DNA of 64,000 nucleotides from Nitrospirota bacterium. GTDB taxonomy: Bacteria > Nitrospirota > Thermodesulfovibrionia > Thermodesulfovibrionales > JdFR-86. Where the stretch lies: positions 480,001 to 544,000 of the forward strand of contig CAVRJY010000001.1 in NCBI GenBank assembly GCA_963721805.1, given 5' to 3'. Under the pieces are notes generated by a model. It was not told the origin of the DNA. It saw only the letters and a list, made by a program, of their open reading frames with translations, and made no database searches. Positions within the stretch are counted from its first letter, which is position 1. Every line of letters begins with the position of its first letter. The position numbers and the translations under genes are program-made. Below are positions 3,046 to 33,331 of this stretch, piece after piece.

Positions 3046-3063
3046 TTTACCGGATAAAAAGAT

Positions 3064-3104: not shown

Positions 3105-3122
3105 TATCAGCGCGGGCGCGTT

Positions 3123-6063: not shown

Positions 6064-6084
6064 TCGATAATCGCCCCCTCTTTC

Positions 6085-6876: not shown

Positions 6877-6888
6877 GGGGGCGGTTCT

Positions 6889-7062
6889 AAAGCCGAGCTA
6901 AATCGCTTGATGCGTTGTCGCGGCGTCGGAAATCCGTCCTCGATGTACGCCTAAGTACACCGTCGGACGTTTTCCTCGCCGATTCTAGCCTCAAGACGAT
7001 TTATCGCGCTTTAGTGTGGCCCCTGCCTGATCGCGCGAGTGGTCAACGGCATTGATTAGAGC
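6889..7062 (-). repeat. Nested-hairpin repeat copy 3 (divergent, compensatory changes)
   Basis: Same nested stems with GGAAATCCGTCC/GGACGTTTTCC; tail GGTCAACGGCATTGATTAGAGC. Confidence 0.85.
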
Positions 7063-7178
7063 GGCCTAATTGCTGCCGCCCCGTGGAAGTGTGTCAATAG
7101 GAGTTCATCATTTCAAATAAATAGGCTGTACTGTTATTCCCTATATAATTTCAGAGAACGGGGGTGAGGTAAACGCTA

Positions 7179-7415
7179 TTATCCGGAAGAGTTAATTTTC
7201 CTTCTTGCCATGTCCACTACACGGTGGACGTCTCCAAGACATCACTTTCCGAGAGGATTAGTAAGGTGACAGTGACAGGCACCTTTCTGTTTCTCGGCTT
7301 TTATTCTGTTTAGGATAGAAGATTCGCCATTATTGGCAATAACATCGGCCTCGATATCGGATTCCGTATATCCGAAGCAGTAGCAAATTTGCTTATTTTC
7401 CTTGAGCAGCTTCAT
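7179..7415 (-). CDS. BFD/CopZ-like [2Fe-2S]-binding small selenoprotein (78 aa, UGA=Sec at codon 58); absent from the ORF track
   Basis: Manual translation MKLLKENKQICYCFGYTESDIEADVIANNGESSILNRIKAEKQKGACHCHLTNPLGK-U-CLGDVHRVVDMARRKINSSG; TGA at 7244-7242 occupies the first Cys of the NPxGxCC motif; downstream hairpin GTCCAC-CGTGTA-GTGGAC. Confidence 0.85.
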
Positions 7416-7466
7416 GCATGATTATAACATGGCCCAATCATACCAACAAAATTTGGCCTCTTTTCA

Positions 7467-7750
7467 CTAACTATAGTTAACCAAAAAATTCACGCGCATC
7501 AATTTTTCCTATGAACCTCGGTTTATATATAAACCGTAGGTTATCACTTTTTTCATTGGGGGCGCGGGGGGTCGGCGGCGGAGCCGCGTTAACCCCCGAA
7601 AGCGAGCCGCAATCGGCTTCAGACAAGGGGGACGGTTGGCCCCAGTCTTTTAGGCGAGGTGCCCGTGGCACCCCGATGGTGTACAGTGACGCACATGGAG
7701 GGCGAGGCTTCGAAGTCAACGAAGTATCAAGCGATTTGGTGCGCTTTGAA
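7467..7750 (+). repeat. Nested-hairpin repeat copy 4 (subtype C, core 7599-7747) with shortened extension including the palindrome at 7514-7542
   Basis: TTTTTCCTATGAACCTCGGTTTATATATAAACCGTAGGTTATC shared with 32798-32841; core ends GTATCAAGCGATTTGGTGCGCTTT. Confidence 0.85.
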
Positions 7751-7824
7751 AGAGGAAGCGTTGACATTACCAGAGAAGCTTGCTTTAATTAACGGTACAT
7801 TCCAGTTCACAGGAGGCTATTAAC

Positions 7825-8595
7825 TTGGCGATAAAGGTGGGCATTATTGGCGGTTCCGGCATGGACGATCCGAAACTGCTAAAAGACAAGAAGGATAAGG
7901 CCGTCAAGACCCCCTGGGGCGCGCCCTCGTCGAACCTCTCCATAGGGACGATTGGCGGCGTGGCGGTCGTAATACTGGCGCGCCACGGCAAGGACCACTC
8001 GATCTACCCGACCGGCGTGAACTTCCGCGCCAACATCAGCGCGCTTCAGGCCGAGGGGGTCACGCACATACTCGCGACCACTGCCGTCGGCTCGCTACGG
8101 GAGAAGATCAAACCCGGAGACCTCGTCTTCCCGGACCAGTTCATCGACCACACGAAGCTCCGGGCGCTTACGTTCTTCGACAAAAACAAGGTCGTGCACA
8201 CCCCGATGGCGGACCCGTTCTGCGCCGCGCTCAGGAAGATCCTCATCGACTGCGCAAAGTTGCTGAAGCTCCGCCATCACAGGCAGGGCACCGTGATCAC
8301 GATTGAGGGCCCGAGGTTCTCGACGCGCGCAGAGTCGCACATGTTCCGGCAGTGGGGCGCGGACGTGATCAACATGTCCACGGTGCCCGAGGTCTCTCTG
8401 GCGCGTGAGGCCGGGATATGCTACCAGTCCATCGCGATGTCCACGGACTACGACTGCTGGAAGGAAAACGAGGAGCCCGTGACCTGGGAGATGGTGCTGG
8501 GCACGATGAACCGCAACGCGGAAAACGTGCGCAAACTGTTAGTGAAGGCCCTGCCGCACATAACCGATACCCGCTGCTGCTCCGGCGGCCACTGA
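7825..8595 (+). CDS. mtnP: S-methyl-5'-thioadenosine phosphorylase
   Basis: GIIGGSG, LARHG, IEGPRFSTRAES, INMSTVPE, TDYDCW. Confidence 0.93.
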   Translation: MAIKVGIIGGSGMDDPKLLKDKKDKAVKTPWGAPSSNLSIGTIGGVAVVILARHGKDHSIYPTGVNFRANISALQAEGVTHILATTAVGSLREKIKPGDLVFPDQFIDHTKLRALTFFDKNKVVHTPMADPFCAALRKILIDCAKLLKLRHHRQGTVITIEGPRFSTRAESHMFRQWGADVINMSTVPEVSLAREAGICYQSIAMSTDYDCWKENEEPVTWEMVLGTMNRNAENVRKLLVKALPHITDTRCCSGGH

Positions 8596-8608
8596 GAAAG
8601 AGGATGCA

Positions 8609-9142: not shown

Positions 9143-9150
9143 GGGGTGCG

Positions 9151-9352
9151 AAAGCGCACCAAATCGCTTGATACTGCGTTGGGCATCGAAGACTCGCCCT
9201 CTATGTACGCCCAAGTACACCATCGGGGTTCCTCGGGCACCTCTCCTGAAGAAAGGGCCAGTCGGCCCCTTGTCTGAAGCCGATTTGGGCGCGCTTTGCG
9301 GGGAGTAGCGAAGCCCCCGCGCCCCCAAGCCCCCAAGGTCAGTGGCATTGAT
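9151..9352 (-). repeat. Nested-hairpin repeat copy 5 (subtype C)
   Basis: Core 9151-9297 with the same ~25-bp internal insertion as copy 4; tail GGTCAGTGGCATTGA. Confidence 0.9.
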
Positions 9353-9357
9353 ATGAA

Positions 9358-9410
9358 AAGTGAGAGGGGCTTTTGCCCCGCGAATAGGAGCGAGGGGGCG
9401 CTGCCCCCTA
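9358..9410 (-). repeat. Partial hairpin-linker module
   Basis: Reverse complement reads GGGGGCAGCGCCCCC-TCGCTCCTATTCGC-GGGGCAAAAGCCCC-TCTCACT. Confidence 0.65.
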
Positions 9411-9848
9411 AAACGTATCCGGGTTCTCGGGCGGGAGTGCGGCCTCGTCAAATGGCATGATACCGAGCTCGGTCATAAGCGCATCTAGCGCGGCGATGCG
9501 GGCAGGGAGGGCGCTGGCGTCCACGCTCCCCGCGAGCGCGTCCTCGACAAGGCACTGAAACGCGTCATAGTCGAATCTCCCGCTGAGTATCCCGGTGCTG
9601 ACGAGGACATCGTATGCGGCCTGCTCGTAGTCGAACGGCTGGTTGGGGATCTCATTTGAGTGCAGGTCGAGCGCGTACTCTATCGCGGCCGAGAGCGCGT
9701 CGCCGAGCGTCACTATCCCGGCCTCGTGCTTGCCCTGCCGTAGGCGCCTCTTGCCGCCCCGGATATGGAGCCGCGCGCGCAGGAGCGGCCCTTCCACTGG
9801 GCCCATATCGCGTTCCTTCATCAGCCCGGCATGCGGCATCTCTCGCAC
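9408..9848 (-). CDS. Hypothetical protein (start uncertain)
   Basis: ORF downstream of the fabF-like gene with host-like codon usage. Confidence 0.65.
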   Translation of the reverse strand: MREMPHAGLMKERDMGPVEGPLLRARLHIRGGKRRLRQGKHEAGIVTLGDALSAAIEYALDLHSNEIPNQPFDYEQAAYDVLVSTGILSGRFDYDAFQCLVEDALAGSVDASALPARIAALDALMTELGIMPFDEAALPPENPDTF

Positions 9849-9859
9849 CTCATGCCCAA

Positions 9860-10981
9860 TTATATCGCAATGAGCGCCGAGGCGTTAGCCCCCCCGAACC
9901 CGAACGAGCAACAAAGTGCGATGCGGCCATCGACCGCTTGCGCAGCCGCGGAGCACGGTATCGAGGGGAACTCGCTATCCGCGAGCGTGGGGGTCGGCGG
10001 GAGCATTCCCGCGCGAAGCGCCATCACGGCCATCACGGCCTCGAACGCGCCGGACGCGCCGAGCATGTGGCCTGTCATCGACTTAAGCGCGCAGACCGGC
10101 GGGACGCGGCCCTTGAAGACCCCGGCGAGCGCGCTGGCCTCGGAGAGGTCGCCCAGGCGAGTCGCGGCCGCATGAGCGAATACCGCCGAGACATCCCCTG
10201 GAGCGATGCCTGCATCGCGCAGCGCGCGGCCCATCGCGAGGGCCTGGCCCGCGGCGCTCGGGGCGGTTTCGTGCGAGGCGTCCGAGGATGCGCCGAAGCC
10301 GATGACCTCCGCGCATATTTGCGCGCCGCGCCCGCGCGCTTTATCGTAGTCCTCCAGCACCATGACCGCCGCGCCGTCAGCGAGCGTAAACCCGTCGCGT
10401 CCCTTATCGAACGGCCTGACGATGCCGATTTTCGAGAGCACACCGGCCCGGCCATATCCCGCTATGGCGAGCCCGCATACCGGGGCCTCGGCCCCTCCGG
10501 CTATCGCGATCTCGCACCTGCCGCGCCGGATCGCCTCGTACGCCTCGCCTATGGCGTAGAGCCCCGAGGAGCATGCGTTGGAGACGCCGAGCGTCCGGCC
10601 GGTTATGCCGAACCTTATCGCGATGTACGATGCCGCCATCCCGACGGCCGATGCGGACATCGTGTACGCGCCTGGCCTTGTGGCGCATGCGGCCTCGAGC
10701 GTTGCGATGCCACCGCGCGCCGAGCCCACGATCACGTCCGCCTCACGCAGGGCATCGGAGGGGAGCCCGGAGCCGCCGATAGCCTGCGACGCGGCAGCGA
10801 GCGCATACTGCACGAACCTGTCGAGCCGCAGGGCTTCTTTGGGAGTGAGGCAACCGGATGCGTCGATTGAGAGCGCCTCGCGCCCGCCGCGTCCGCCGAT
10901 CATGGCGGCCTCCCACGAGGCGGCCGCTGTGGAACCCAGCGGGCTTACCGCGCCCATACCTGTGATCGCCACCCTGCGCAT
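9860..10981 (-). CDS. Beta-ketoacyl-ACP synthase (FabF-like)
   Basis: SNACSSG, AHAAAT, KSMTGHMLGASG, SFGFGG. Confidence 0.88.
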   Translation of the reverse strand: MRRVAITGMGAVSPLGSTAAASWEAAMIGGRGGREALSIDASGCLTPKEALRLDRFVQYALAAASQAIGGSGLPSDALREADVIVGSARGGIATLEAACATRPGAYTMSASAVGMAASYIAIRFGITGRTLGVSNACSSGLYAIGEAYEAIRRGRCEIAIAGGAEAPVCGLAIAGYGRAGVLSKIGIVRPFDKGRDGFTLADGAAVMVLEDYDKARGRGAQICAEVIGFGASSDASHETAPSAAGQALAMGRALRDAGIAPGDVSAVFAHAAATRLGDLSEASALAGVFKGRVPPVCALKSMTGHMLGASGAFEAVMAVMALRAGMLPPTPTLADSEFPSIPCSAAAQAVDGRIALCCSFGFGGANASALIAI

Positions 10982-11027
10982 TGTAAACTATTTTAGCACA
11001 GAGGGTTTACTGGATAAGAGGGGCACG

Positions 11028-11834
11028 TCAGCCCCTTAGCCTGCCGATGACGAGCGAGACCGCGAAGATCCCGAACGCGGTGCCTATGACCGCCGGGCCC
11101 GAGGGGATGTTGAGGTAGTATGAGGAGAGGATGCCCGCGCCGAACGAGGTTATGCCCACTACCGGCGCGATCACCGTAAACTGCCTGAAACTGCGGCTCA
11201 GGAGCTTGGCCGACGCGGCAGGTATCACGACCATCGCGTTTGCGAGTATCACGCCGATGAGCTTGATGCTCAGCGCGATGGCAAGCGCGATGAACCCGAT
11301 CAGGACGTAGTCGTATGCGCGCACCGGGACGCCCTCGGCCTGCGCGATCTCCGGCAGGAACGAGGCCTTCAAGAGCCGCCGCATGTTCATGGCGAGGAAT
11401 ACCGCGAACGCCGCAAGCAGCCCGGCCGAAAGCAGGATGTCGCGCGTGCCGATCAGGAGTATGTCGCCGAAGAGAAACTGCATGAGCGTGGCCTGCCCGA
11501 TCCCCTTGACCGAGATGATGATGATGCCGGCGGCCACCGCCCCGCCGTAAAATACCCCGAGCACGGTGTCTCGCGAGAGGCTGAAGGAGTTCCATACGGC
11601 CGCCACGGTGAAGGCCATCACGAGGCTGTAGGGGATCAGAAATAAAGCGGGGTCGGCGTTCAGCATCAGCGCGAGCGCCGCGCCCAGGATCGCGGAGTGG
11701 GCGATGAAGTCCGAAAAAAACGACATCCCGCGCGTGACCACGAATATGCCCATGAGCGAAAACAACGCCCCGAGGATGACGCCAGCAAGGAGCGCCGAGC
11801 GCATGAAGCCGTAGTCCAGCGCCTCAATGCCCAC
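11028..11834 (-). CDS. znuB: Zn/Mn ABC transporter permease
   Basis: SDFIAHSAILG, FLFGDIL, PSGPAVI; GTG start inferred. Confidence 0.85.
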   Translation of the reverse strand: MGIEALDYGFMRSALLAGVILGALFSLMGIFVVTRGMSFFSDFIAHSAILGAALALMLNADPALFLIPYSLVMAFTVAAVWNSFSLSRDTVLGVFYGGAVAAGIIIISVKGIGQATLMQFLFGDILLIGTRDILLSAGLLAAFAVFLAMNMRRLLKASFLPEIAQAEGVPVRAYDYVLIGFIALAIALSIKLIGVILANAMVVIPAASAKLLSRSFRQFTVIAPVVGITSFGAGILSSYYLNIPSGPAVIGTAFGIFAVSLVIGRLRG

Positions 11835-12585
11835 AGTTGCAGCCCCCATCCGTCTGCGAGCAGCCTGCGACATGCAGGATGCACTTGCCGCCTACGTGGT
11901 GCGTGCTCCCGGAGAGCCCGGCCACGCTTGCGTCGAGCTCCGGCGCACCGGCAGGCATGAAGAACCAGTGGCCCTCGCCCCCGAGCCCGAGCACGTGGGT
12001 CGAGACCGGCCGCAGGGAGTGGAAGTCGTGCGATACGACAACGATGGCGATGCCTTTCTTGCGGAACTCCTCGATGATGCAGATGATGCAGTCCGCGCCG
12101 CGCGTGTCGACCCAGCTCGTCGGCTCGTCCATCACGAGCAGGCCGGGCTCCTTCGTGACCGCGTACGCGAGCAGCGCGCGCTGCATCTGCCCGCCCGAGA
12201 GCTCTCCCACGCGGCGGCCAAGCAGCGGGCGCAGCTCCAGCAGGTCGAGGTATTTCCCCATGTCAGCGTCCGGCGCGCTCAGGGCGAGCATCTCCCTGAG
12301 CGTGATCGGGAAGCTGCGGTCGAACTCAAGGCGCTGCGGGATGTATGCGACCCTGCGCTCGGCCTCGCTGGGCGCGAGCCTTTTGTGGCCGAAGTACTCG
12401 AAGCTCCCTGCCTTGAGCGGCAGCATCCGGAGCATGGCCTTAAGCAGCGTGGTCTTGCCCGAGCCGTTGGGGCCGATCACGGCCATGACCTCGCCCGGGC
12501 CGAGCGCGAACGTGACGCCGTTTAGCACCGCGCGCTCGCCATATCCGGCGGTGACCCCGTCAGCCCTTAGGACGTCCGGGCTCAT
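11824..12585 (-). CDS. znuC: Zn/Mn ABC transporter ATP-binding protein
   Basis: GPNGSGKTT, LSGGQMQR, MDEP; ATGA overlap with the upstream gene. Confidence 0.88.
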   Translation of the reverse strand: MSPDVLRADGVTAGYGERAVLNGVTFALGPGEVMAVIGPNGSGKTTLLKAMLRMLPLKAGSFEYFGHKRLAPSEAERRVAYIPQRLEFDRSFPITLREMLALSAPDADMGKYLDLLELRPLLGRRVGELSGGQMQRALLAYAVTKEPGLLVMDEPTSWVDTRGADCIICIIEEFRKKGIAIVVVSHDFHSLRPVSTHVLGLGGEGHWFFMPAGAPELDASVAGLSGSTHHVGGKCILHVAGCSQTDGGCNCGH

Positions 12586-13424
12586 CTGGCGCACTCAAGG
12601 ATGGTCTTCAGGTTTCTGTGCATGGCCTCCTCATAATAACCGGGTTCATCCCTGCCCAGCTCAAGCGACGAGATGCCGCACATGCGCACCCCGACGTCGC
12701 GGCTGAGCTTCTCCATCTCGGCCGGAGGGAACCCCTCTTCCATGAAAACCGCGGCTACGGCCTTCCTCCTCGCCATGTCATGGAGCCTGGCCATGCTGGC
12801 CGGCAGCGGCGCATCGCCGGTCGGGCCGCTCAGGGAGAATGCATCGAGCCCGTAGCGCTCGGCGAAATATGCCATAAATGCATGGTACGTCACTATGTTG
12901 CGGTTGGCAAGGGGCCGGAGGCCCTTTTCTATCTCGGCATCGAGCGCGGTGAGGCTTCTGATATAACCCTCGGCGTTGCGCCTGTATGCGTCCGCGTTTA
13001 CCGGGTCGGCCTTCGCCATCGCGGCCTCTATGTTGCGCACCTGCTGCATCGCACGGCGGGGGTCCATCCAGACGTGAGGGTTCGTGGCGCTGCCCGTGCC
13101 GATGAGCCTGACCCCGGCCGAGGTGTCCACGATGCGCTCCCTGCGGCCGAAGGGCCTCATCATCACGTCCTCGAGCCCGGCGCCGTTTAGGAGTATGAGC
13201 CCGGCCTGATCGAGCCGCTTGATGTCCTGCGGCCTGAGGCTGAACTCATGGACGTCCTCGCCGGGCGGCACGAGCAGGCTGACCTTCATCAGCCCGCCCG
13301 AGACGTTCTCGGCGAATATCGCTATCGGCAGGAACGAGGCCACCGCGGAGAGCTGCCCGGCCATCGCGTTTCCGGCCGTCATGAACGCCATAAGCGCGGT
13401 CAGCGCAAGTATCTTCGCCTTCAT
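12582..13424 (-). CDS. znuA: Zn/Mn ABC transporter substrate-binding protein
   Basis: DVHEF, NGAGLE, NPHVWMDP, YHAF. Confidence 0.88.
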   Translation of the reverse strand: MKAKILALTALMAFMTAGNAMAGQLSAVASFLPIAIFAENVSGGLMKVSLLVPPGEDVHEFSLRPQDIKRLDQAGLILLNGAGLEDVMMRPFGRRERIVDTSAGVRLIGTGSATNPHVWMDPRRAMQQVRNIEAAMAKADPVNADAYRRNAEGYIRSLTALDAEIEKGLRPLANRNIVTYHAFMAYFAERYGLDAFSLSGPTGDAPLPASMARLHDMARRKAVAAVFMEEGFPPAEMEKLSRDVGVRMCGISSLELGRDEPGYYEEAMHRNLKTILECAR

Positions 13425-13430
13425 CTCCGG

Positions 13431-14258
13431 TCAGAACCCGACCGAAACGGTCACGCCGCCCCAGAGCACGTGGCTGTCGCCGCCGTCGCCCACTGCCATG
13501 CGCGCGTCGCTGATCGCGTAACTCGCGTCCTTGCTCAGCGGGAAGTCGTACATTATCGAGGGCACTATCGTTATGGCCTTCGTCGCCGGTATGCTCACGT
13601 TGGCGCCGAGCTCGCCGTAGTACGGCCCGTTAAACCGCTTGCCGTCCTGGTTGACCCCCATGGTCGCGTTTTTGAAGTTAAACCCGGCCGAGGCGCAGCC
13701 GCCCACGGTAATGCCGCGCCAGAGCTCAGGGCTCTGCTGGCTCAAGCCGAGTATCATAAACCCGCCGCCCTTGCCGAGCCTGAGGTCCTGATAGTACGTG
13801 AGCGTCGGGGTGAGTATCGTGTCGTATGAGGCCGAGACGAAGGCCTCCTCGGTGTTGGCGTCCTTGAATCCCAGGTAGCTGTAGCCCGCGCTCATCGTGA
13901 GGGCCTTGAGCGTATAGGTGTATTTAAGCGTCAGGTCGGTCTCGGTGACCTCGCTCAGATGGCGGCCGGTGTCGTAATTCGCCCAGACGTTCATGTTAAA
14001 ACCATGGTAGTCGAAGTCTATCGAGGGCTGGACCACGCCACTGCGGCTTAAGACCTCTCCGCGCGAGACGTACCGGCTCATGTAGCTTACGGACGCGTCA
14101 GCCGAGGTGGTCGTCTCCTCCGGCGCGGCGACCGCCTCCTTGCCGCCCTCGCCCGGGTCTGCCGGCGCTTTGCTGCTTACATCGTCCGCCATCGCGGCCC
14201 CGGCAGCCATAAGCAGCATGACCGCCGCGAGCAACATGCTTAACGCCTTCCTTGTCAA
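13431..14258 (-). CDS. Outer-membrane beta-barrel protein (putative porin)
   Basis: Signal peptide, SRYVSRG..VQP motif, amphipathic strands, terminal Phe. Confidence 0.75.
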   Translation of the reverse strand: MTRKALSMLLAAVMLLMAAGAAMADDVSSKAPADPGEGGKEAVAAPEETTTSADASVSYMSRYVSRGEVLSRSGVVQPSIDFDYHGFNMNVWANYDTGRHLSEVTETDLTLKYTYTLKALTMSAGYSYLGFKDANTEEAFVSASYDTILTPTLTYYQDLRLGKGGGFMILGLSQQSPELWRGITVGGCASAGFNFKNATMGVNQDGKRFNGPYYGELGANVSIPATKAITIVPSIMYDFPLSKDASYAISDARMAVGDGGDSHVLWGGVTVSVGF

Positions 14259-14277
14259 TTCATTCCCCTCCCGATCC

Positions 14278-14715
14278 CTATCGCCTGCATTGCGAGCAGA
14301 GCCCCTCTATGTGCAGGGAGTGGCTCTTGACCTCGCCCTTCAGGTGCTTCTCGATGAACCTCTCGACCTCCGCGAAGTTGCAGTACTCGACCTCCTCGAC
14401 CTTCCGGCAGCGCTGGCAGACGAAGTGGTGATGGTGGTGCTCCTCAGGCATGCGGCAGAGCATGTAGGTGAGTTCGCGCGAGGGCACCGGCATCAGCGCG
14501 CCTAGCTCCTTAAGCTCTTCAAGTATGCGGTATACCGTAGGCAGCCCGAGCGTGGGGATCTCCTTGATCAGGCCCTCGCGCACCTCGTGCGGCCCCATGC
14601 ACCGGTTCTCCCTGAGGAAGAGCCCGAGCACGGCCTTGCGCTTCGGCGTGACCTTGAGCCCGCCCTGCCTGAGCATCGCCTCATACCGTTCGGTGCAAAT
14701 AGAATTCATTTCCAT
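14278..14715 (-). CDS. zur: Fur-family regulator, probably Zur
   Basis: TVYRIL, HHHHFVCQRC, GLCSQC; heads the znu operon. Confidence 0.85.
   Translation of the reverse strand: MEMNSICTERYEAMLRQGGLKVTPKRKAVLGLFLRENRCMGPHEVREGLIKEIPTLGLPTVYRILEELKELGALMPVPSRELTYMLCRMPEEHHHHHFVCQRCRKVEEVEYCNFAEVERFIEKHLKGEVKSHSLHIEGLCSQCRR
14694..14714. promoter_or_regulatory. Candidate Fur/Zur operator
   Basis: 21-bp imperfect palindrome TGCAAAT-AGAATTC-ATTTCCA at the start of the zur-znu operon. Confidence 0.5.
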
Positions 14716-14793
14716 CTAAATTATCACGCATCATGTGCTAAGTCAAGCTTTATATGACCGGGATCAGGGAATTTCTCTAAAGGAGGCGCTACA

Positions 14794-15044
14794 ATTAATC
14801 CAGGAGGACGGCCTTCATAGCGCTCATAGTATGCATAGCTCTCTGCGGCGGCGTTGCATCGGCCGGGGGGTTCGTCTGCACCGAGTGCCACAGCAAGGAC
14901 CCGAAGATGAGGGCCATGCACGAGGCGCTTGGGTTCAAGGGCTGCGAGGCGTGCCACGCCTCGCGCACGGACGTTAAGTTCACGGACGAGGCCAAGCGCA
15001 ACCGCTCAAAGGACCCCCGCTGTGTGCGCTGCCACCAGAAATAA
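14794..15044 (+). CDS. Small periplasmic triheme cytochrome c; start codon not resolvable; absent from the ORF track
   Basis: Frame from 14802: RRTAFIALIVCIALCGGVASAGGFVCTECH...CEACH...CVRCHQK-stop; SD AAGGAGG at 14780-14786. Confidence 0.8.
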
Positions 15045-15045
15045 A

Positions 15046-15314
15046 GCCGTTGACCTTGCGGGGGGCCGACTGGCCCATCTCACTATTCGCGGGGTCATGG
15101 ACCCCTCTCACTATTCGCGCCATAGCGCTCATCTCTTATTAAAGCCTTTGACCTTGTGGGGTGCGGGGGGCTTTTTTATTCTCTCCCCCCGAAAGCGCGC
15201 CCAAATCGTCTTCAGACAAGGAACAACGAGCGGACCGCCCGGAGGCGTATATAGACATACGTCGAGGACGAGGCCGCGAGTTGTGACGCAGTATCAAGCG
15301 ATTTGGGGCGCTTT
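15046..15314 (+). repeat. GCCGTTGACC tail + hairpin-linker module (15059-15136) + second tail + nested-hairpin repeat copy 6 (core 15192-15314)
   Basis: Outer stems conserved; inner stems replaced by compensatory GCGGACCGCCC/GGACGAGGCCGC and GCGTAT/ATACGT. Confidence 0.88.
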
Positions 15315-15325
15315 CAAAAAACCAT

Positions 15326-17119: not shown

Positions 17120-17128
17120 GGCTTTTAG

Positions 17129-17298
17129 AAAGCGCTCCAAATCGCTTGATACTGCGTTGGGCATCAAAGACTCGCCCTCTATGTACGTCACAGTACACCA
17201 TCGGGCGGTCTTCTCGCCCTGCCTTGTCTGAAGACGATTTGGGCGCGCTTTCGGGGGGCACTGCAAAGAACGCCCCCCGCACCCCGAAGGTCAACTGC
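17129..17298 (-). repeat. Nested-hairpin repeat copy 7
   Basis: Core 17129-17251 near-identical to copies 1, 8, 9 and 11. Confidence 0.95.
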
Positions 17299-17407
17299 TC
17301 AGTTGGATGAATTATTGAGCGTGTTAGCCTCATTCCGTATTGAATCATATGGCGGGGCCGAAAGTCGATAAAGCGGAGCTGATGATCTGACAATAAATTA
17401 CGGGTGC

Positions 17408-18667: not shown

Positions 18668-18717
18668 CGTCAGAAATCATATCATTTGCGCATAAACGCG
18701 GGCAAACGGTGAGTGTT

Positions 18718-19228
18718 AAAGCGCTCCAAATCGCTTGATACTTCGTTGGGCATCGAAGACTCGCCCTCTATGTACGTCACAGTACACCATCGGGCGGTCT
18801 TCTTGCCCTGCCTTGTCTGAAGACGATCTGGGCGCGCTTTCGGGGGGCGAGGATGACGGACGCCCCCCGCGCCTCGTGGTCAACGGCATGATTTGAGGGC
18901 CGGTCATACGCATATATACGCATACCGCGCGCGCGTTTTATTTTATGTGTTCGGATGTTTGAGGCAAATAAGCGGATAATCCTATGGAAAACATCGTTTT
19001 TCTGAGTCCGGCGCTGTTCGGATGTTCGGATAAAAAGCGTGAGATTTGCCGATCTATCCGAACACCCGGCGCAACCTCTTGCTTCCCCCGCCCCGCCCAT
19101 CAAAAATGCTCTTATCTTACTCATGCCACCACTATACACCAAAGACCACCAAACTTTGGTTTATATCCACCGAAAAAAATAAGGTCCGTGCGTTTTCTAT
19201 TAACTTTCGACTAACTACTGTTAATTAA
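18718..19228 (-). repeat. Nested-hairpin repeat copy 8 (core 18718-18840) with full long extension
   Basis: Core, tail GGTCAACGGCAT, then GTTCGGATGTTCGGAT repeats and terminal TGCGTTTTCTATTAACTT shared with 32751-32790. Confidence 0.92.
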
Positions 19229-19402
19229 GGGCTCTTTGCAACGGAAAAGATTGGCTTAAATGCGATAGCTGCTTATGCTAATGGCAGGGTGGACAAAGGC
19301 ATAACCCATACCGCAAGCTCAGAGCTCTCCCACATCAGAAATCGGGCTCCGCCCTATTTTCCCACAGAACCTTTCTTTTGTGGAATTATTTATAATTTGT
19401 GC

Positions 19403-19648
19403 ATGCCCAATGTGCTCAGAGTCGGGAAGTACAGGTTTTTCTTTTTCAGCAAGGAGGGCGGTGAACCGCCGCACATACATGTCGAATCAGGCGATGATTA
19501 CGCCAAGTTCTGGCTATCGCAACTTTCTCTTGCAAAATCCATAGGGTATAATAGTAAAGAACTCGGGGAAATACGGATTATCGTCGCGGACAACGTCGAG
19601 ATGATGAAGGAGAAATGGAATGAGCACCTCAACCGCAAAATCGGCTGA
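19403..19648 (+). CDS. DUF4160 family protein (putative toxin-antitoxin component)
   Basis: MP.V....YRFFFFS.E..EPPHIHV.....AKFWL signature. Confidence 0.85.
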   Translation: MPNVLRVGKYRFFFFSKEGGEPPHIHVESGDDYAKFWLSQLSLAKSIGYNSKELGEIRIIVADNVEMMKEKWNEHLNRKIG

Positions 19649-19859
19649 ACCCATGGCCAGCGCGGTCTGGTTCGACGCGGACAAGCTCCATGTGCGCCTG
19701 CTCGACGGCAGGGAGATAGGCGTCCCGCTTGAGTGGTTCCCAAGGCTCCGCGACGCGTCCGAGGCCCAGCGCGCCAATTGGAGGCTAATCGGCAGGGGCA
19801 TCGGCATACATTGGGACGAGATCGACGAGGACGTTTCGGTGGAGAGCATCCTGTCCTGA
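19620..19859 (+). CDS. DUF2442 family protein (partner of DUF4160)
   Basis: LLDGREIGVPLEWFPRL, GIHWDEIDEDVS. Confidence 0.85.
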   Translation: MSTSTAKSAEPMASAVWFDADKLHVRLLDGREIGVPLEWFPRLRDASEAQRANWRLIGRGIGIHWDEIDEDVSVESILS

Positions 19860-19920
19860 GTTGACCGCCCTCGGCGTGGGCATAATGCGGAGAACAAGGC
19901 GGCCCTATTTCCTGTATTAA

Positions 19921-20616
19921 ATGTGGTTGGTGAGAGGTAAAATCGGAAAGATGGTCACTGACGAATTTCACTTCGATTTGAACGCAAAGCGCACTCGCCT
20001 TAGCGACGACGATCTTATGATCGCATTGCAGTCTGCTGCTGAGACGCTTGGTGAGGGTTACTTTACGTCCATACAATACAATGCACTCCCCGGAAAACGG
20101 CCTCATTCTGACACAATAAGCGATCGCTTCGGTTCATGGAAAAAGGCACTGACACTCATTGGAATCGCTGGAGGTCGAGAAAGAAAGTATTCGCCCGAAA
20201 CGCTCATTGACAATATAGAAAACATTTGGAGGAAGTTGGGTTATCCGCCTGGCAAGAGGCAACTCTCAACCTGTGGGGAGAGAATTTCCGAGTCTCCATA
20301 CAAGAATCACTGGGGTAGCGTGCGTGCCGCATGCGAAGCACTTGAAGAGTTTCACTCTGGAAGAATCTCAAGAGAGCAACTGCTCAAAGGTAAGCCTAAT
20401 GAACCAACCCGTACAACAATCCCGTTGAAAGATAGATGGGCTGTATTGAAGCGCGACAACTATAGTTGTGCAAAGTGCGGTGCAAGCCCATCCAATGATC
20501 ACAACGTTGAACTAGAGGTTGACCACAAATTCCCCGTCGCAAGAGGTGGAGAAAATAGCCTTACTAATCTTCAAACACTCTGTCGAAAATGTAACCAAGG
20601 GAAGAAAGACAGATAA
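19921..20616 (+). CDS. HNH endonuclease with two N-terminal homing-endonuclease-associated repeats
   Basis: RFGSWKKAL / HWGSVRAA repeats; VLKRDNYSCAKCG, EVDHKFP..GG..SLTNLQTLCRKCN; lower GC than flanks. Confidence 0.85.
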   Translation: MWLVRGKIGKMVTDEFHFDLNAKRTRLSDDDLMIALQSAAETLGEGYFTSIQYNALPGKRPHSDTISDRFGSWKKALTLIGIAGGRERKYSPETLIDNIENIWRKLGYPPGKRQLSTCGERISESPYKNHWGSVRAACEALEEFHSGRISREQLLKGKPNEPTRTTIPLKDRWAVLKRDNYSCAKCGASPSNDHNVELEVDHKFPVARGGENSLTNLQTLCRKCNQGKKDR

Positions 20617-20695
20617 TTCCGGCCAACAAAAGACTGTTCAGCAGTCCACTCGAGTAGAAAATAGGAACGGCTCTATCCAATCAAACCCCTTCAAC

Positions 20696-20853
20696 GGGGG
20701 CGCGGGGGGCTCCGTTATCCTCTCCCCCCGAAAGCGCGCCCAAATCGTCTTCAGACAAGGCAGGGCGAGAAGACCGCCCGATGGTGTACTGAGACGTACA
20801 TAGAGGGCGCGTCTTCGCAGCCCAACGCAGTATCAAGCGATTTGGAGCGCTTT
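20696..20853 (+). repeat. Nested-hairpin repeat copy 9
   Basis: G-rich/C-rich arm and core 20731-20853. Confidence 0.95.
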
Positions 20854-20865
20854 GAAGAAGGCAAC

Positions 20866-20899
20866 AAAAAAAGGGCCGGGAGAAAATCCCGGCCCTTTG
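20866..20899 (-). terminator. Intrinsic terminator of trpB2
   Basis: AAAAAAGGGCCGGGA-loop-TCCCGGCCCTTT. Confidence 0.8.
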
Positions 20900-20914
20900 T
20901 AGGCTGAGCTATAT

Positions 20915-22268
20915 CTATATCTTGGGCAGCTTGGCCAGCGACTCCTTGATCTTCTCTTCCGGATACTCATAGTCCACCAGCTTCCCCGCCATATAATCGG
21001 CATAGGCCATGAGGTCGAGATACCCATGTCCGCTCAGGTTGAACAGTATCGTCTTTTGCTTGCCCTCTTCCTTGGCAGCCAAGGCCTCGTCTATCGCGGC
21101 GCGGATCGCGTGCGAGCTCTCCGGGGCGGGTATGATCCCCTCGGTGTTCGCGAACTGAAGCGCGGCCTCGAAGACCGCGTTCTGGCCGTACGCCCTCGCC
21201 TCGATCAGGCCGTCTTTGTGGAGCTGGCAGACGAGCGGCGAGTCCGCGTGGTATCTGAGCCCTCCGGCGTGGATGCCGGGGGGCATGAAGTCGTGGCCCA
21301 GCGTGTACATCATCATCAGCGGCGTCATGCCGATCGAGTCGCCGAAGTCATACCGGAACTCGCCCTTGGTGAGCGTGGGGCAGCTTACGGGCTCGACCGC
21401 GATCACGCGCAGCTTCTTGCCGTTGATCTTGTCTTGCAGAAACGGGAAGCCGATGCCGCCGAGGTTGCTCCCGCCGCCGCAGCAGCCGATCACGATGTCC
21501 GGGTAGTCGCCCACGAGCGCGAGCTGCTTCTTCGCCTCCTGCCCGATAATGGTCTGGTGCAGCACCACGTGGTTGAGCACCGAGCCGAGGGCATAGTTCG
21601 TATCCGGCCTGCTCGCGGCGTCCTCGACGGCCTCCGAGATCGCGATGCCCAGGCTGCCCTGGCTGTTTGGGTCCTCGGCCAGTATCTTGCGCCCTGCGTT
21701 CGTGGTGTCCGACGGGCTCGGGATGACCTTCGCGCCCCAGGTCTCCATCGCTATGCGGCGGTAAGGCTTCTGGTTATAGCTGACCTTGACCATATAGACC
21801 ATGATCTCGATGCCGAACATCTTGCCCGGCCAGCGCGAGCGCCGAGCCCCACTGCCCCGCGCCGGTCTCGGTCGCGATGCGCTTGATCCCGGCCTGCTTG
21901 TTGTAGTAGGCCTGCGGGACCGAGGTGTTGGGCTTGTGGCTCCCGGCCGGGCTCACGCCCTCGTATTTGTAGTAAATCTTGGCCGGGGTGCCGAGCGCGG
22001 CCTCGAGCCTGTGCGCGCGGTACATCGGCGAGGGCCGCCAGAGGGTGTAGATGTCGAGGACCTCCTCGGGGATGTCGATCCAGCGCTGCGTGCTGACCTC
22101 CTGCTCGATCAGGGACATCGGGAAGATCGCGCTTAAGTCCTCCGGGCCTATCGGCTTGTGAGTGCCGGGGTGCAGCGGCGGCTGGACCGGGTTTGGCATG
22201 TCGGCCGCGATGTTATACCACTGGCGCGGCATCTCGGACTGCGGAAGGTTGATGATCGTCTGTCTCAT
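20915..22268 (-). CDS. trpB2: TrpB-like PLP enzyme (TrpB2); apparent frameshift near 21826
   Basis: [29 protein letters not shown] across ORFs 21774-22268 and 20915-21820. Confidence 0.9.
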
Positions 22269-22373
22269 CGAGCTGCGTCCCCCTTGAGGTTTGGATGTTT
22301 CGATTATATCACGGCATATGCGAGGGGGCCCCCTGTTAAATCCCGTGCCTGTTTTCCCTTATAATAAGACCCG

Positions 22374-24764
<2,391 letters not shown>

Positions 24765-24766
24765 CG

Positions 24767-25599
24767 ATGACGCGCAAGGTGAGCATAGGCGGTGTCGAAA
24801 TCGGGGCCCGTGGCCCCTTGCTGGTCATCGCCGGGCCCTGCGTGATCGAAGACAAAGAGACGATGATGCAGACCGCAGCCGAGATGCGCGACATTTGCGC
24901 CTCACTTGGACTGCCGTTCGTGTTTAAGAGTTCATACGACAAGGCCAACCGAAGCTCGGTCATCGTCCCCCCGCGGCCCCGGCATCGAGGCCGGGCTCGC
25001 GATGCTCAAAGAGATAAAAGACGCGCTCGGCGTGCCGGTCTTAAGCGACGTGCACACCCCCGAGGAGGCCACTGCGCGCGGCCAAGGTGCTCGACGCGCT
25101 GCAGATCCCGGCGTTCCTGTGCCGCCAGACTGACCTGATAGTCGCGGCCGCAAAGACAGGCAAGCCGGTCAATATCAAGAAGGGCCAGTTCCTTGCGCCC
25201 TGGGACGTCCAGAACATCATCGAGAAGGCCCGCTCTACCGGCAACGAAAATATCATGCTCACCGAGCGCGGGACTACGTTTGGGTACGGGAACCTCGTCG
25301 TGGACTTCAAGGGCGTGGCCCTGATGCGCACGTACGGGTATCCGGTGATATTCGACCTCACGCACAGCTTGCAGCTTCCGGGTGCTCAGGGCACGTTTAC
25401 CGGAGGCGAGCGGCAGTACGCCGCGCCGCTGATGCGCGCGGCATGCGGCGCGGGGATAGACGGGCTGTTTATAGAGGTCCACCCGGAGCCCGAGCGCGCG
25501 CTGTCGGACAAGACGACGGTGCTCCCGCTCTCTGACGTGCGCGCGATGCTCGAGGTCGCGCGCGACATACACGCGATAGTGAGGCGGGGCGGATTATGA
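24767..25599 (+). CDS. kdsA: KDO8P synthase; apparent frameshifts near 24966 and 25078
   Basis: [39 protein letters not shown]. Confidence 0.92.
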
Positions 25600-25623
25600 A
25601 AAGAAAAGAGCGATGAGCGGATC

Positions 25624-27665: not shown

Positions 27666-27709
27666 AGGGCGACGTTCGGTGATCGGCGTCAAGGAGGCGT
27701 TGCTGTGCC

Positions 27710-29944: not shown

Positions 29945-30972
29945 AGGGATCGCTCAGGGAGTTCAGCCTCGCCGACATATTGCAGCTCCTGCACTTCCAG
30001 CGGAAGACCGGGGTGCTCACGATCGCGGGCAAGTCCGACAAGATCCGGCTGATGTTCAACGAGGGCCAGATAGTCGCGGCCGAGAGCCAGAAGCGCGACG
30101 TCGCGGGGCGCCTGGGCCGGGTGCTGGTATCGCGCGGGATCATAACCGAGGACTCGCTCGAGCAGGCCATCGAACGGCAGAAGGACTCGGGCATGCGCCT
30201 CGGAGAGATACTCATCGCCGACGGCCGCGCCACGCCCGAGGACATCAAGGGCGTGCTCTCGTTTCAGATCACCGAGGCAGTAAACCAGCTCTTCACCTGG
30301 AAGGAGGGCCGGTACGACTTCACCGCGCAGGCCGTGCCCGTGGACCAGGAGCTCTCGGTGAGCCTCGATACGCAGCACGTCCTGATGGAGGGCCTGCGCC
30401 TCCTTGACGAATGGACCCAGCTCGGGGACATGATAAACGTCGATACCGTATTCGTCCAGAGGGAGAACCCCGATGCCGAGGTCACGGACGAGGAGCAGCG
30501 CATACTCGCGTTCGTCGACGGCGCAAACGACGTCGGCACTATCGCGGACCTCACAGGCATAGACAGCTTCAACGTCTCGATGCTGCTGCTGGGGCTCATA
30601 CAGAAGGGCAGGGCCGCCAAGAAAGAGGCGATTACCGCGCAGTCGGTCGCGGCGGTGCGCATCTACATCCCGCCGCCCCCGGTGCCGCAGCTCACGCTCA
30701 TCCTCGCCCTGATGCTGGCGGTATCGCTGGCCATAAGCGTGGCGCTCGTCTGGGCCACCGGTGACGTGCGGGCGTTTAAGGCCGCAACGCAGATAGACCG
30801 CATTCGCACCTCTGTCGAAATGCAGCAGCGCATGAGCGGCTCGTACCCGGCGGCGATAGAAGGCACTGACCCGTGGGGGACGCCGTATGTATATCAAGCG
30901 ACCGCGCAGGGATTCACCATCTTCTCCGCAGGGCCGGATCGCACGCCCAACACGCCGGACGACATCCACTAA
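29935..30972 (+). CDS. DUF4388 (PATAN-like) domain protein with C-terminal GspG-like segment
   Basis: MALEGSLREFSLADILQLL; DPWGTPY..SAGPD..TPDD. Confidence 0.8.
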   Translation: MALEGSLREFSLADILQLLHFQRKTGVLTIAGKSDKIRLMFNEGQIVAAESQKRDVAGRLGRVLVSRGIITEDSLEQAIERQKDSGMRLGEILIADGRATPEDIKGVLSFQITEAVNQLFTWKEGRYDFTAQAVPVDQELSVSLDTQHVLMEGLRLLDEWTQLGDMINVDTVFVQRENPDAEVTDEEQRILAFVDGANDVGTIADLTGIDSFNVSMLLLGLIQKGRAAKKEAITAQSVAAVRIYIPPPPVPQLTLILALMLAVSLAISVALVWATGDVRAFKAATQIDRIRTSVEMQQRMSGSYPAAIEGTDPWGTPYVYQATAQGFTIFSAGPDRTPNTPDDIH

Positions 30973-30986
30973 ATCGTTTTCAATCC

Positions 30987-31160
30987 AAAGTCGCGTTAAA
31001 TACGCGTGATACGTTGTCAGGCCTTCAAAGACGCGCCCTCGGAGTACGTCTCAGTACACCGTCGGGCGGTCTTCTCGCCCTTCCTAGTCTGACGCGATTT
31101 ATCGCGCTTTAAGTGGCTGATGCGGGATCGTGCGAGCGGTCAACGGCATTGATTAGAGCG
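30987..31160 (-). repeat. Nested-hairpin repeat copy 10 (subtype B)
   Basis: Near-identical to copy 2; tail GGTCAACGGCATTGATTAGAGCG as in copy 3. Confidence 0.9.
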
Positions 31161-31246
31161 CCCCAGCATATTATTATTTGATGCCACGCAAAGCAACTAA
31201 GGTTTATTTTGACATCATAGGCCATTCAAGAGTATTATAAGAATCT

Positions 31247-31831
31247 ATGGAAACTGAGATAAAATTAAATCAAATAAATATTAAGGTTCCTGGCAACTGG
31301 AACAGAAGAATTTTTTCACCAGCTTGGATTAGCAAGAATTTTACTGTGCCCGAAGGTATTCGTGAGATAAATTTACTTTTTAATCCAGACGATATAGAGA
31401 TCGGCTATAAAATAATGGGAGTGCAAATTTTTCCTAAAGAAAACGAATTGGCCTTAGTTATTGGAAATTCAGACGAAATTAACAATGACAACATACTTTT
31501 ATGTTTTAAGCTTTTCATAAAGATTTTAGACATTCTTCCTCAAACCCCGATAAAAGCAATTGGATTCAATGTGGACTATTTGTTACCTGTTAATGCAAAG
31601 TCTAATTTAGGTGATTGGATAAAAAAGCAAAAACAAGATTATGAAAAGCTCGCAATGAATGGCTTGACATTAAAACAAGACACCGAGAAATATACATTAA
31701 ATTTAAAAATCGAAATCATCGCAGATACCTTTAAGGTAGATTTTAATTACCATTTCAAAAATTACGTTGACATTGATCAATCTCCAGATTTTTTCATAAA
31801 GCTTATCGAAGACACAAAGAGGTACTTATAA
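31247..31831 (+). CDS. Hypothetical protein, AT-rich cassette gene 1
   Basis: Intact ORF in AT-rich DNA; motifs GNWNRRIFSPAWI, TPIKAIGFN, DFNYH. Confidence 0.8.
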   Translation: METEIKLNQINIKVPGNWNRRIFSPAWISKNFTVPEGIREINLLFNPDDIEIGYKIMGVQIFPKENELALVIGNSDEINNDNILLCFKLFIKILDILPQTPIKAIGFNVDYLLPVNAKSNLGDWIKKQKQDYEKLAMNGLTLKQDTEKYTLNLKIEIIADTFKVDFNYHFKNYVDIDQSPDFFIKLIEDTKRYL

Positions 31832-32316
31832 TGTCTGACTCTCCTAATATGGCGCTCTCAAACACTGAAAACAATGAGCATGAAAATATCTGGACATTTT
31901 CTATAGAGAATCCACATAACCAATTTAGCTTTAAATTTCCAGAGCGAACTTTTAGGACAAAGTATTTCACTGTCTTAAGCAACTTGACGCGCACAGAAGA
32001 CTACTATGTAACCGCTATAAGAAATTTGCTGAAAAAAACAAATTTCCTTGAATTATATCAACAGCTCTTGGAAGATCAGATATCACAAGAAAGTTTCCAT
32101 AAAGAACTCGCGGAATCCTCCAATAAGTATGTTGTTGATATACATCCTCTTGCCAACAAAGAAGATATTAATATAATTATAGGAATTGTCAACAGAATAG
32201 GCTATGAACTCAGAGAGTTTTCTGGGAATGAAATTGATGAGCTTTTTTCAACCAATATTAGTGAAGAGATTGCTGCTATCGACAGCAGTTCGCTGACGAA
32301 AAATCTGTATGGTTAA
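31831..32316 (+). CDS. Hypothetical protein, AT-rich cassette gene 2
   Basis: TAATG translational coupling with gene 1. Confidence 0.75.
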   Translation: MSDSPNMALSNTENNEHENIWTFSIENPHNQFSFKFPERTFRTKYFTVLSNLTRTEDYYVTAIRNLLKKTNFLELYQQLLEDQISQESFHKELAESSNKYVVDIHPLANKEDINIIIGIVNRIGYELREFSGNEIDELFSTNISEEIAAIDSSSLTKNLYG

Positions 32317-32689
32317 GCTAATTGCCCAAGGCGCTTCAATCGAAGGCGAAAGAGTATCAGTATATACTCGCAAACAAATATTCCACTCTCTTGTTCAAAT
32401 AGGAGGTATGACATTATGTAAATACAAATGTTCGACACATGTAAAATCAGAAGTTATAGAGGAACTAATCCCAAAAAGATATAAGATCAAAAAGACCTCC
32501 AATCTGAATGCTGGAGATTTGTTGGAGGCAGATGTTATTGAAGTATATCCCCAATCTATGCTGACGTTCGAAAAAGAAGCAAATTATAGTCATACTCATG
32601 GCATCCAAACAGCTCAATCAAAAGGTTTCACATATGCTGAAATAGCGATCCCTTTTCGGTTTTTGTTAGAAAGAGCTATTGGGAGATAA
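32309..32689 (+). CDS. Hypothetical protein, AT-rich cassette gene 3
   Basis: Overlaps the gene 2 stop by 8 nt. Confidence 0.7.
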   Translation: MVKLIAQGASIEGERVSVYTRKQIFHSLVQIGGMTLCKYKCSTHVKSEVIEELIPKRYKIKKTSNLNAGDLLEADVIEVYPQSMLTFEKEANYSHTHGIQTAQSKGFTYAEIAIPFRFLLERAIGR

Positions 32690-32750
32690 GAAAATGGGAG
32701 AACCGGGACAGCTATACTTTTTACGAATTTCGATGCAGGCGGCCCTCTTC

Positions 32751-33281
32751 ATTAACCACAGTTAATCGGAAGTTAATAGAAAACGCATGACCCTTCATTT
32801 TTCCTATCAACCTTCGGTTTATATATAAACCGTAGGTTATCGCATTTTTTATTTCGTTGTGCTTCAATACTGCATGAGGCTGATATGCTCATATTTGAAG
32901 GTGCTGAAAACGCGGAAGGATGCCGATGGGCGGCGCGAAAAACGTTTCTGAACGCCTAAACACGGAGGTCGCAAAAAAGCGATGAAATCCGCATGGTTAG
33001 AAGCTGTTTTCTTCGTTCATTTGAACGCTCTAAAAAAATACGCGCGGCCGCGCGCGGTAAGTATGTATATAACTAAGGCTACGGATGCAGGTCAAAGAAA
33101 GCCGTTGACCTCGTGGGGCGCGGGGGGCGGGGCCGACTGGCCCCCTTCTTTCCCCCCGAAAGCGCGCCCAAATCGGCTTCAGACAAGGCAGGGCGAGAAG
33201 ACCGCCCGATGGTGTACTGTGACGTACATAGAGGGCGAGTCTTCGAAGCCCAACGCAGTATCAAGCGATTTGGAGCGCTTT
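32751..33281 (+). repeat. Long extension (32751-33100) + nested-hairpin repeat copy 11 (core 33159-33281)
   Basis: TTAACCACAGTTAATCGGAAGTTAATAGAAAACGCA start, palindrome 32809-32838, CGCGCGGCCGCGCGCGG tract, GCCGTTGACC tail, core. Confidence 0.9.
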
Positions 33282-33331
33282 GAAAAAAAGCTTGTTGAGC
33301 GGTGGGGCGTTGTGAGGGTATACTGTTAGTT

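Follow-up and report, generated by a model that had tools for sequence, protein, structure and literature searches.

A 64,000-nt stretch of DNA from a Nitrospirota bacterium (JdFR-86; assembly GCA_963721805.1, contig CAVRJY010000001.1, positions 480,001-544,000), hereafter the window, was found to carry a structured repeat of about 180 nt, copies of which face each other in pairs around small patches of DNA with a low guanine-plus-cytosine (GC) content. Three such loci, named A, B and C, are members of a set that extends over the whole genome and numbers at least 55 small accessory islets, together with 8 nearly empty sites, all bounded by the same repeat. The enclosed DNA is foreign-looking and defence-like. 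The interpretation favoured here is that the repeats are resident hairpins anchored at the ends of host genes, that the gap between two facing copies may receive or exchange foreign cassettes, and that a non-coding module present on one side of many islets is likely a protein-docking site. A probability of roughly 0.45 is given to this interpretation, a little short of even odds.

The following terms are used. One copy of the repeat bordering an islet is an arm. The head is the end of the repeat with the variable extension, which an earlier note on this stretch had called the tail, and the tail is here the opposite end, which abuts host genes. Module X is the junction module of about 360 bp.

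Results

Orientation of the repeat around low-GC DNA

The genome analysed comprises 2.78 Mb in 9 contigs (GC 0.60, 94% complete). A repeat profile was built from a MAFFT alignment of the 11 copies in the window and was then searched across all contigs, which yielded 234 copies genome-wide, 172 of them full length. The GC content was determined over the 300 bp beyond each end of the 172 full-length copies. It was 0.500 for the head flanks and 0.590 for the tail flanks (Wilcoxon p 7e-25). Values below 0.5 were observed at 52% of the heads and at 3% of the tails, with a genome background of 7.5%. Foreign DNA starts at the head side of the arm and not at the tail side.

The mutual orientation of the copies followed the same rule. 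Adjacent copies not more than 3 kb apart were arranged heads-inward in 52 cases, tails-inward in 7 and in tandem in 38. When intervals of 50-5000 bp were considered, a GC content below 0.5 was found in 41/53 heads-inward intervals and in 0/19 tails-inward ones. The set of heads-inward pairs less than 6 kb apart consists of 63 pairs distributed over 6 contigs, of which 55 enclose cargo (at least 200 bp) and 8 are nearly empty, with 4-60 bp between the heads and one pair overlapping. The same relation was evident from the side of the low-GC DNA. Among the 149 low-GC segments of at least 500 bp in the genome, correctly oriented arms were present at both borders of 31, at one border of 48 and at none of the remaining 70, which include large islands. 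A wrongly oriented (tail-inward) arm was found at only 5 borders.

Some "pairs" enclose host-GC genes, such as the interval 9352-15138 of the window, which holds znuABC and fur and about which the earlier note had rightly cautioned. These are probably merely neighbouring solo copies. The genes inside tails-inward pairs were considered as candidate cognate enzymes and rejected; judged by position and length, they are ordinary host-GC genes.

Cargo

The 55 interiors contain 171 open reading frames (ORFs) of at least 50 amino acids, which give 137 clusters, so that nearly every site holds a different cargo. A Pfam search with the 158 ORFs of at least 60 amino acids revealed toxin-antitoxin families (DUF4160/DUF2442, HepT/MNT, ParE/Phd, HicA, Gp49-HTH, PemK, MazE and DUF2283/DUF4258), restriction-modification systems (MmeI-type and methylase-Mrr) and a further group comprising Abi_C, KAP NTPase, HEPN, PLD, Ser/Thr kinase, ankyrin, GNAT and HNH families. 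The majority of the cargo ORFs displayed no Pfam family. When 27 further selected cargo ORFs were compared with PADLOC, 8 were matched.

Structure, age and spread of the repeat family

A repeat search of window positions 1-35000 returned families of 130-174 nt in both orientations, and the MAFFT alignment of the 11 copies defined a conserved unit of about 180 nt. Its core is one long hairpin of about 120 nt. Compensatory changes were detected in 12 of the 31 base pairs among 31 copies of this genome. In 45 copies from three other genomes, the alignment of which was fitted to the model, such changes were observed in 25/31 pairs, and the covariation score was 0.478 vs at most 0.095 with slid partners. 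The arm fold is real. On the head-to-tail strand of the 172-copy alignment, G-U pairs were far more abundant than A-C pairs, and the fold is therefore selected on that strand. This strand specificity suggests that the functional form of the arm is single-stranded DNA, or an RNA transcribed in the head-to-tail direction. No sigma-70 promoter was found in the head by a consensus scan. Rfam gave no match at the gathering score for the whole window and none at E values up to 1 for positions 30900-33400.

Judged from sequence divergence, the arms appear to be old. Identity to the nearest neighbour amounted to 0.88 among paired copies and to 0.90 among solo ones, and 0/172 copies reached 0.97, whereas both insertion sequences of the genome are 99-100% identical among their own copies. 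The arms have a GC content of 0.576 when paired and 0.577 when solo, the value for the cargo being about 0.46. In other, lower-GC genomes the GC of the repeat is lower as well (0.39-0.48 among the matches listed). Solo copies number 108, of which 67 are full length; they lie mostly in host-GC DNA, with a head flank GC of 0.549. A replichore bias of the solo copies, which would be expected of IS200/IS605-type elements, was not evident.

The distribution of the family was assessed with a covariance model of the arm, for which up to 17 candidates were scored per genome, so that the genome counts are lower bounds. The family is present in at least 25/150 other Nitrospirota genomes and in at least 11/151 genomes of the phylum of a Desulfacinum metagenome-assembled genome (MAG), often as an apical hairpin of about 77 nt alone. 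By BLAST, the arm was absent from 30 relatives. Many genomes (e.g. G472, G469 and G054) carry only this apical hairpin (model positions 84-161), in at least 10 copies. This suggests that a widespread, uncatalogued family has the hairpin as its ancestral unit.

Other features of the repeat landscape were noted. The copies are distributed very unevenly along contig C1 (1.55 Mb): they are dense over the first ~700 kb, a region that includes the window, and become sparse between ~800 kb and 1.5 Mb. A second, smaller repeat, about 78 nt long and containing two short hairpins, occurs at 3597-3674 and 15059-15136 (94% identical copies) and also at ~9352-9400, and it is often found next to a head of the main repeat. 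Yet another short GC hairpin precedes many of the heads that belong to one type.

Position of the tails and independence of the arms

Host gene ends were called with a crude host-codon gene caller. Of 221 tails, 197 were no more than 150 nt away from a host-like gene end. A 3' end was faced by 130 of these, with a median distance from tail to stop codon of 9-11 nt, and a 5' end by 67. Within the same 150 nt, solo copies (96/102) and paired copies (101/119) were equally pinned. A similar tendency was seen in other genomes, in which a convergent stop was located within 30 nt of 18/37 tails vs 9/35 heads.

The two arms of a pair were as different from each other as arms taken at random. Their identity was 0.688 vs 0.684 for random left-right combinations (p 0.33; 334 of the 1000-scaled shuffles were as high), and the partner was among the three nearest copies in only 1/49 pairs. 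Flanking duplications of 3-9 bp, at any offset, did not exceed shuffled controls in the 55 pairs, nor did flanking duplications in 51 solo copies, and a duplication of at least 11 bp was present in 1/130 units (16 bp). No islet was found twice in the genome. The arms behave like residents of the chromosome that are independent of each other, and they are pinned by their tails to host gene ends.

The junction module

Module X is non-coding, and 48 of the 56 occurrences adjoin a head. Of the 63 heads-inward pairs, 34 have the module on one arm and 29 lack it, whereas 0 have it on both arms. It is made up of sharply conserved blocks between variable spacers. The blocks comprise two palindromes, a 9-nt motif in both direct and inverted copies, and an alternating C-G palindrome which, when read inward, resembles an intrinsic terminator. 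No covariation was detected for the module as a structured RNA, and it is therefore probably a site at the DNA level. The module was absent from 400 other Nitrospirota genomes by BLAST, with 2 candidates scored per genome, and module plus arm gave no match among PLSDB plasmids. The head types were divided 37 to 10 on module-side arms and 14 to 15 on partner arms (Fisher p 0.011). This left-right asymmetry is moderate and agrees with the identical junction in loci A and C.

Both insertion sequences, which are unrelated to each other, occur close to the module. All ten copies (10/10) of an IS481-like element (1.2 kb, 344-aa rve transposase, 99-100% identical) are located 6-430 bases from a module match, in both orientations (e.g. 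G000:C2:405769-407088 and C1:81042-82304), most of the nearby matches being partial. For IS200, 3/6 identical copies lie 6-259 bases from a match. From their positions, the IS481-like copies were read as inserted at the outer edge of the module, and the terminal palindrome of the module looks like a strong target for insertion sequences.

Loci in the window

At loci A (6886-7751), B (18715-20856) and C (30985-33285), a minus copy is followed by low-GC DNA and then by a plus copy, the heads pointing inward (Table 1). The inner GC is 0.41, 0.49 and 0.36, respectively. A fourth islet spans the start of the window (C1:479122-480442); its left arm is located outside the window, about 880 bases ahead of the first position, and its cargo measures 963 bp with a GC content of 0.42. 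The profile search placed all 11 copies in 1-33285 and 0 in 33286-64000.

The description in the earlier note agreed largely with these results. The inverted-repeat layout common to three loci was recovered within a few bases, and the fourth right-hand end that had been placed at 1-438 belongs to the islet at the window start. The long extension described on one inner side corresponds to module X, which is found at all four islets, partially at A. The 23-nt junction reported as identical in A and C occurs exactly twice, with 0 occurrences expected from 100 shuffles. The assignment of DUF4160/DUF2442 and HNH genes to locus B and of three orphan genes to locus C was likewise sound. The exception was the gene of locus A, for which a selenocysteine-containing [2Fe-2S] protein had been proposed. 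The minus-strand ORF at 7182-7415 encodes 78 cysteine-rich amino acids and is open only if one in-frame TGA is read through. This label is unverified, since the ORF gave no Pfam match at E 0.01.

Table 1 Repeat copies, modules and cargo in the window
Feature	Position	Strand	Remarks
Module X of fourth islet, right part	1-263	+	Cut by window edge
Right arm of fourth islet	264-442	+	Head at left; profile copy
Repeat copy	6081-6249	-	In tandem with next; tail 18 nt after stop of hldE-like gene
Left arm of locus A	6886-7055	-	Tail against end of FMN-reductase gene; head with 23-nt junction (7041-7063)
Cargo A	7056-7541	.	GC 0.41; small minus-strand ORF 7182-7415, then partial module X (~7440-7541)
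Right arm of locus A	7542-7751	+	Internal insert of ~30 nt; tail ~70 nt before mtnP
Repeat copy	9148-9351	-	Tail 6 nt after end of phosphoribosyltransferase gene; head toward host-GC genes
Repeat copy	15139-15318	+	Tail 8 nt from uvrC stop
Repeat copy	17125-17301	-	Between murA and uvrC
Left arm of locus B	18715-18892	-	Tail 48 nt before murA start, just upstream of promoter-like site
Module X of locus B	18893-19245	-
Cargo B genes	19289-20616	+	DUF4160, DUF2442, HNH endonuclease
Right arm of locus B	20684-20856	+	Tail abuts intrinsic terminator (20870-20898) of trpB-like gene
Left arm of locus C	30985-31152	-	Tail 13 nt after stop of DUF4388 gene; head with 23-nt junction (31138-31160)
Cargo C	31153-32746	+	GC ~0.3-0.37; promoter-like site 31209-31238; three ORFs without Pfam or PADLOC match
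Module X of locus C	32747-33096	+	Palindromes, iteron-like repeats; inward terminator-like hairpin 33041-33056 (minus strand)
Right arm of locus C	33097-33285	+	Tail 17 nt before response-regulator gene

No tRNA genes, which could have served as integration targets, were found in the window. Directly to the right of the fourth islet lie multi-haem cytochrome genes (1278-3045; seven-haem type and cytochrome c7 type). Two host genes are interrupted: the trpB-like gene (20915-22268) is split into two overlapping ORFs, and the CTP synthase gene (23106-25138) is split at 24029-24032, its second part continuing into sequence that resembles a DAHP synthase. Either assembly errors have introduced frameshifts in these places or the genes are real pseudogenes.

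Search for related loci

The best relatives of murA displayed 66-71% identity overall, 60-66% in a scan of a genome collection (Nitrospirota MAGs) and 66% in metagenomes. No repeat was present near murA in the 36 loci examined out of 160 retrieved, and no neighbours were shared. At the family level, synteny is lost around murA and kept only for mtnP-phosphoribosyltransferase. The DUF4388 protein had no relative in the metagenome scan. Two public read runs cover part of the stretch; their contigs are short and do not run across any empty site. In run X2, position 31167 is joined to 32747 on one contig, with 17 other letters between. It could represent a cargo-less junction of arm and module in a related population, which is taken as a mere hint because both sides are repeats and the likeness was set to 85.

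In a genome of the same family (G003), locus L292 (G003:C13:22895-26665) carries a direct duplication of about 220 bp, comprising the 5' end of mtnP and its upstream region, with the two copies 886 bp apart. The duplication (locus coordinates 2171-2388 and 3057-3275) flanks a small insert with two related short ORFs, and the locus has no copy of the repeat. The insert occupies the same spot upstream of mtnP as locus A in the present genome.

Discussion

Proposed docking of foreign cassettes

In the favoured interpretation, the head-to-head gap would be a point of docking or exchange, at which toxin-antitoxin, restriction-modification, abortive-infection and orphan cassettes could be accepted and swapped. 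Two mechanisms can be envisaged. One would be the action of a site-specific enzyme, either on the head or on the 360-bp module; the other would be homologous recombination, for which the dispersed arms could serve as portable homology once DNA has been taken up. The module would be the best candidate for protein docking, with its palindromes, its iteron-like motifs and its presence once per occupied site. A stronger form of this proposal, namely a dispersed chromosomal docking system with the heads as attachment points, in which a cassette-borne iteron module recruits a recombinase and cassettes are inserted, inverted and swapped among dozens of loci, is regarded as doubtful.

The earlier note had suggested either composite units or insertion hotspots. 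The hotspot fits best, and the composite unit is disfavoured by the lack of duplications, by arms that are no more alike within a pair than by chance and by the absence of copies at 97% identity or above. What stands of that first interpretation is the layout, which is genome-wide, and the foreign, defence-type and varied cargo; the movement as whole units does not. The comparison with a dispersed integron, also made there, can be retained as an analogy only, as no integrase reached the cut-off, the sites are inverted and the gene orientation is free.

Several results weigh against docking. No filled-vs-empty allele pair was seen, and capture or exchange was for this reason not observed. The Pfam scan of the cargo revealed no recombinase except those of ordinary insertion sequences (IS481-like and IS200). 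For tyrosine recombinases, 5/7 matches lie inside armless low-GC segments, and none could be linked to the system. The tyrosine recombinase genes at C1:637001-637792 and C2:584863-585621 have host GC. The direction of the cargo ORFs relative to the module was not significantly biased (31 toward, 39 away), and the difference in head types between the two sides is no more than moderate. The arms are not required for acquisition, as 70/149 low-GC segments have none. In three other repeat-bearing genomes the copies are mostly solo and the head and tail flanks are not asymmetric in GC (0.559/0.568 in G003, 0.429/0.443 in G037 and 0.461/0.471 in G054; 35/37 full-length copies, two with less than 300 bases of head flank being omitted), so that the islet-bracketing habit was seen in this genome alone. 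Finally, the polarity could be partly passive, because with the tail jammed against a gene any insertion into the spacer falls on the head side.

Alternative explanations

This last point leads to the alternative that survives best. The repeat could be a gene-end element of the repetitive extragenic palindromic (REP) or miniature inverted-repeat transposable element (MITE) type which sits with its tail against gene ends, foreign DNA reaching the same permissive spacers by unrelated routes; or its copies could be kept at island borders as insulators against read-through. Such an explanation retains weight, since tail pinning alone puts any insert on the head side. The equal pinning of solo and paired copies and the pinning in other genomes agree with it, as do the mutually unrelated arms of host-like GC, the 67 full solo copies in host-GC DNA and the wide occurrence of the family as islandless solo copies. 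It accounts poorly for the frequency of the association: about 37% of low-GC borders have a correctly oriented arm vs about 5% expected, a rough estimate from copy density. Double-arm spacers were occupied in 55/63 cases vs about a fifth of solo heads, and the module is present once per site, never twice. Moreover, the arms look older than the un-ameliorated cargo, so that an arrival of the arms after the islands is ill-fitting. The passive explanation is considered somewhat unlikely.

Movement of the islets as units is improbable. A non-autonomous transposon with terminal inverted repeats of about 180 bp, or a composite of two MITEs, would be mobilized by a transposase in trans. The inverted arms with their outer ends at a conserved terminus are compatible with such a unit, the 8 short head-to-head dimers resemble cargo-less derivatives, and the one-sided module and the distribution of head types provide some left-right differentiation. 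The missing target duplications, both short and long, in pairs and in solo copies, argue against it, and so does the fact that the arms within a unit are not more alike than random ones. In addition, neither near-identical copies nor an islet in duplicate was found, host GC is a property of the arms and not of the cargo, and a Y1 transposase was detected in 2/5 other repeat-bearing genomes only.

A known cassette system, either attC sites of integrons and of clusters of attC sites lacking integron-integrases (CALIN) or Xer-dependent dif modules, is very improbable: the sites are structured, strand-specific and placed around small toxin-antitoxin-rich cassettes, and their inverse orientation and the homing of insertion sequences recall dif modules (PMC13141974, PMC10132070), but the best integron integrase score was 68.8 bits vs a cut-off of 265, and the sites are about 180 nt instead of 28 bp, without Rfam match and inverted; they surround cargo of free orientation at 55 or more dispersed loci, on chromosomal contigs that reach 1.5 Mb.

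Significance

Should the gaps indeed serve for docking, this lineage would distribute its small defence and toxin-antitoxin genes over dozens of insulated slots between housekeeping genes, in contrast to one array or a few large islands, and a new model of low-cost acceptance of foreign genes would emerge. Structured DNA or RNA sites of a new family would be added to this, and there might be a new recombinase to look for. The question extends past one genome, since the core of the repeat is widespread in Nitrospirota and in a second phylum. Even if the association is passive, a strand-specific hairpin of 180 nt situated about 10 nt from stop codons is an uncatalogued element.

Comparison with known systems

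The arms resemble the attC sites of integrons, including CALIN, in being folded and strand-specific and in surrounding small, often promoter-poor cassettes rich in toxin-antitoxin and orphan genes. In the present case this likeness concerns the fold and not recombination. A search of the 94% complete genome with TIGR02249 gave no integron integrase at the cut-off. Unlike in integrons, the sites are inverted and not direct, each of many loci holds one cassette group in place of a single array, and the gene orientation is free.

Structured non-coding repeats of 100-200 nt in intergenic spacers are also known as Correia, ERIC and RUP elements and as Tn3-derived TIME composites, and two copies of such elements can bracket genes. 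The islets differ from MITE composites in that no terminal duplication was found, the arms of a unit are unrelated and strictly heads-inward, and no matching transposase was detected among the cargo, where the Pfam scan showed only those of the IS481-like and IS200 elements.

Small defence cassettes between conserved genes, exchanged without mobility genes of their own, are represented by the restriction-modification units of Helicobacter, inserted with a long target duplication, and by the minimal mobile elements of Neisseria. In G003, the small insert immediately upstream of mtnP, flanked by its 220-bp duplication, is similar to these cases. Unlike them, the islets are repeat-bounded, and long flanking duplications are almost absent (1/130 units).

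With REP, BIME and REPIN-RAYT systems the repeat shares its abundance as intergenic hairpins, the frequent location at gene 3' ends, the inverted doublets and the lack of target duplication. It is longer (180 nt vs 20-60 nt), and no cognate Y1 gene accompanies it here, the only candidate being the ordinary IS200 with its 6 identical copies; in other repeat-bearing genomes, Y1_Tnp was absent from 3/5 and present in 2/5. The REPs of Pseudomonas are a mark of old core DNA, and its strain-specific genes are found in REP deserts (PMC3390384), which is opposite to the association of the repeat with foreign DNA observed here.

A keyword search of the literature found no description of structured repeats bracketing chromosomal islets, which is not proof of absence. 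The nearest analogue in layout would be the dif module. In Acinetobacter plasmids, pdif sites of 28 bp recognized by XerC/XerD are inversely oriented, and small accessory or toxin-antitoxin modules lie between two such sites (PMC13141974, PMC10132070, PMC6449649). The likeness is one of layout only. The content of dif modules varies from site to site, as it does here, and specific insertion sequences home to the sites, which may be compared with the 10/10 IS481-like and 3/6 IS200 copies at module X. Unlike dif modules, the present sites are hairpins of about 180 nt, they are chromosomal, dispersed over at least 55 loci and pinned by their tails to host gene ends, and an extra module of 360 bp is present on one side. 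If the proposed docking is correct, such a dispersed arrangement would represent a third way to organise captured genes, beside integrons and dif modules.

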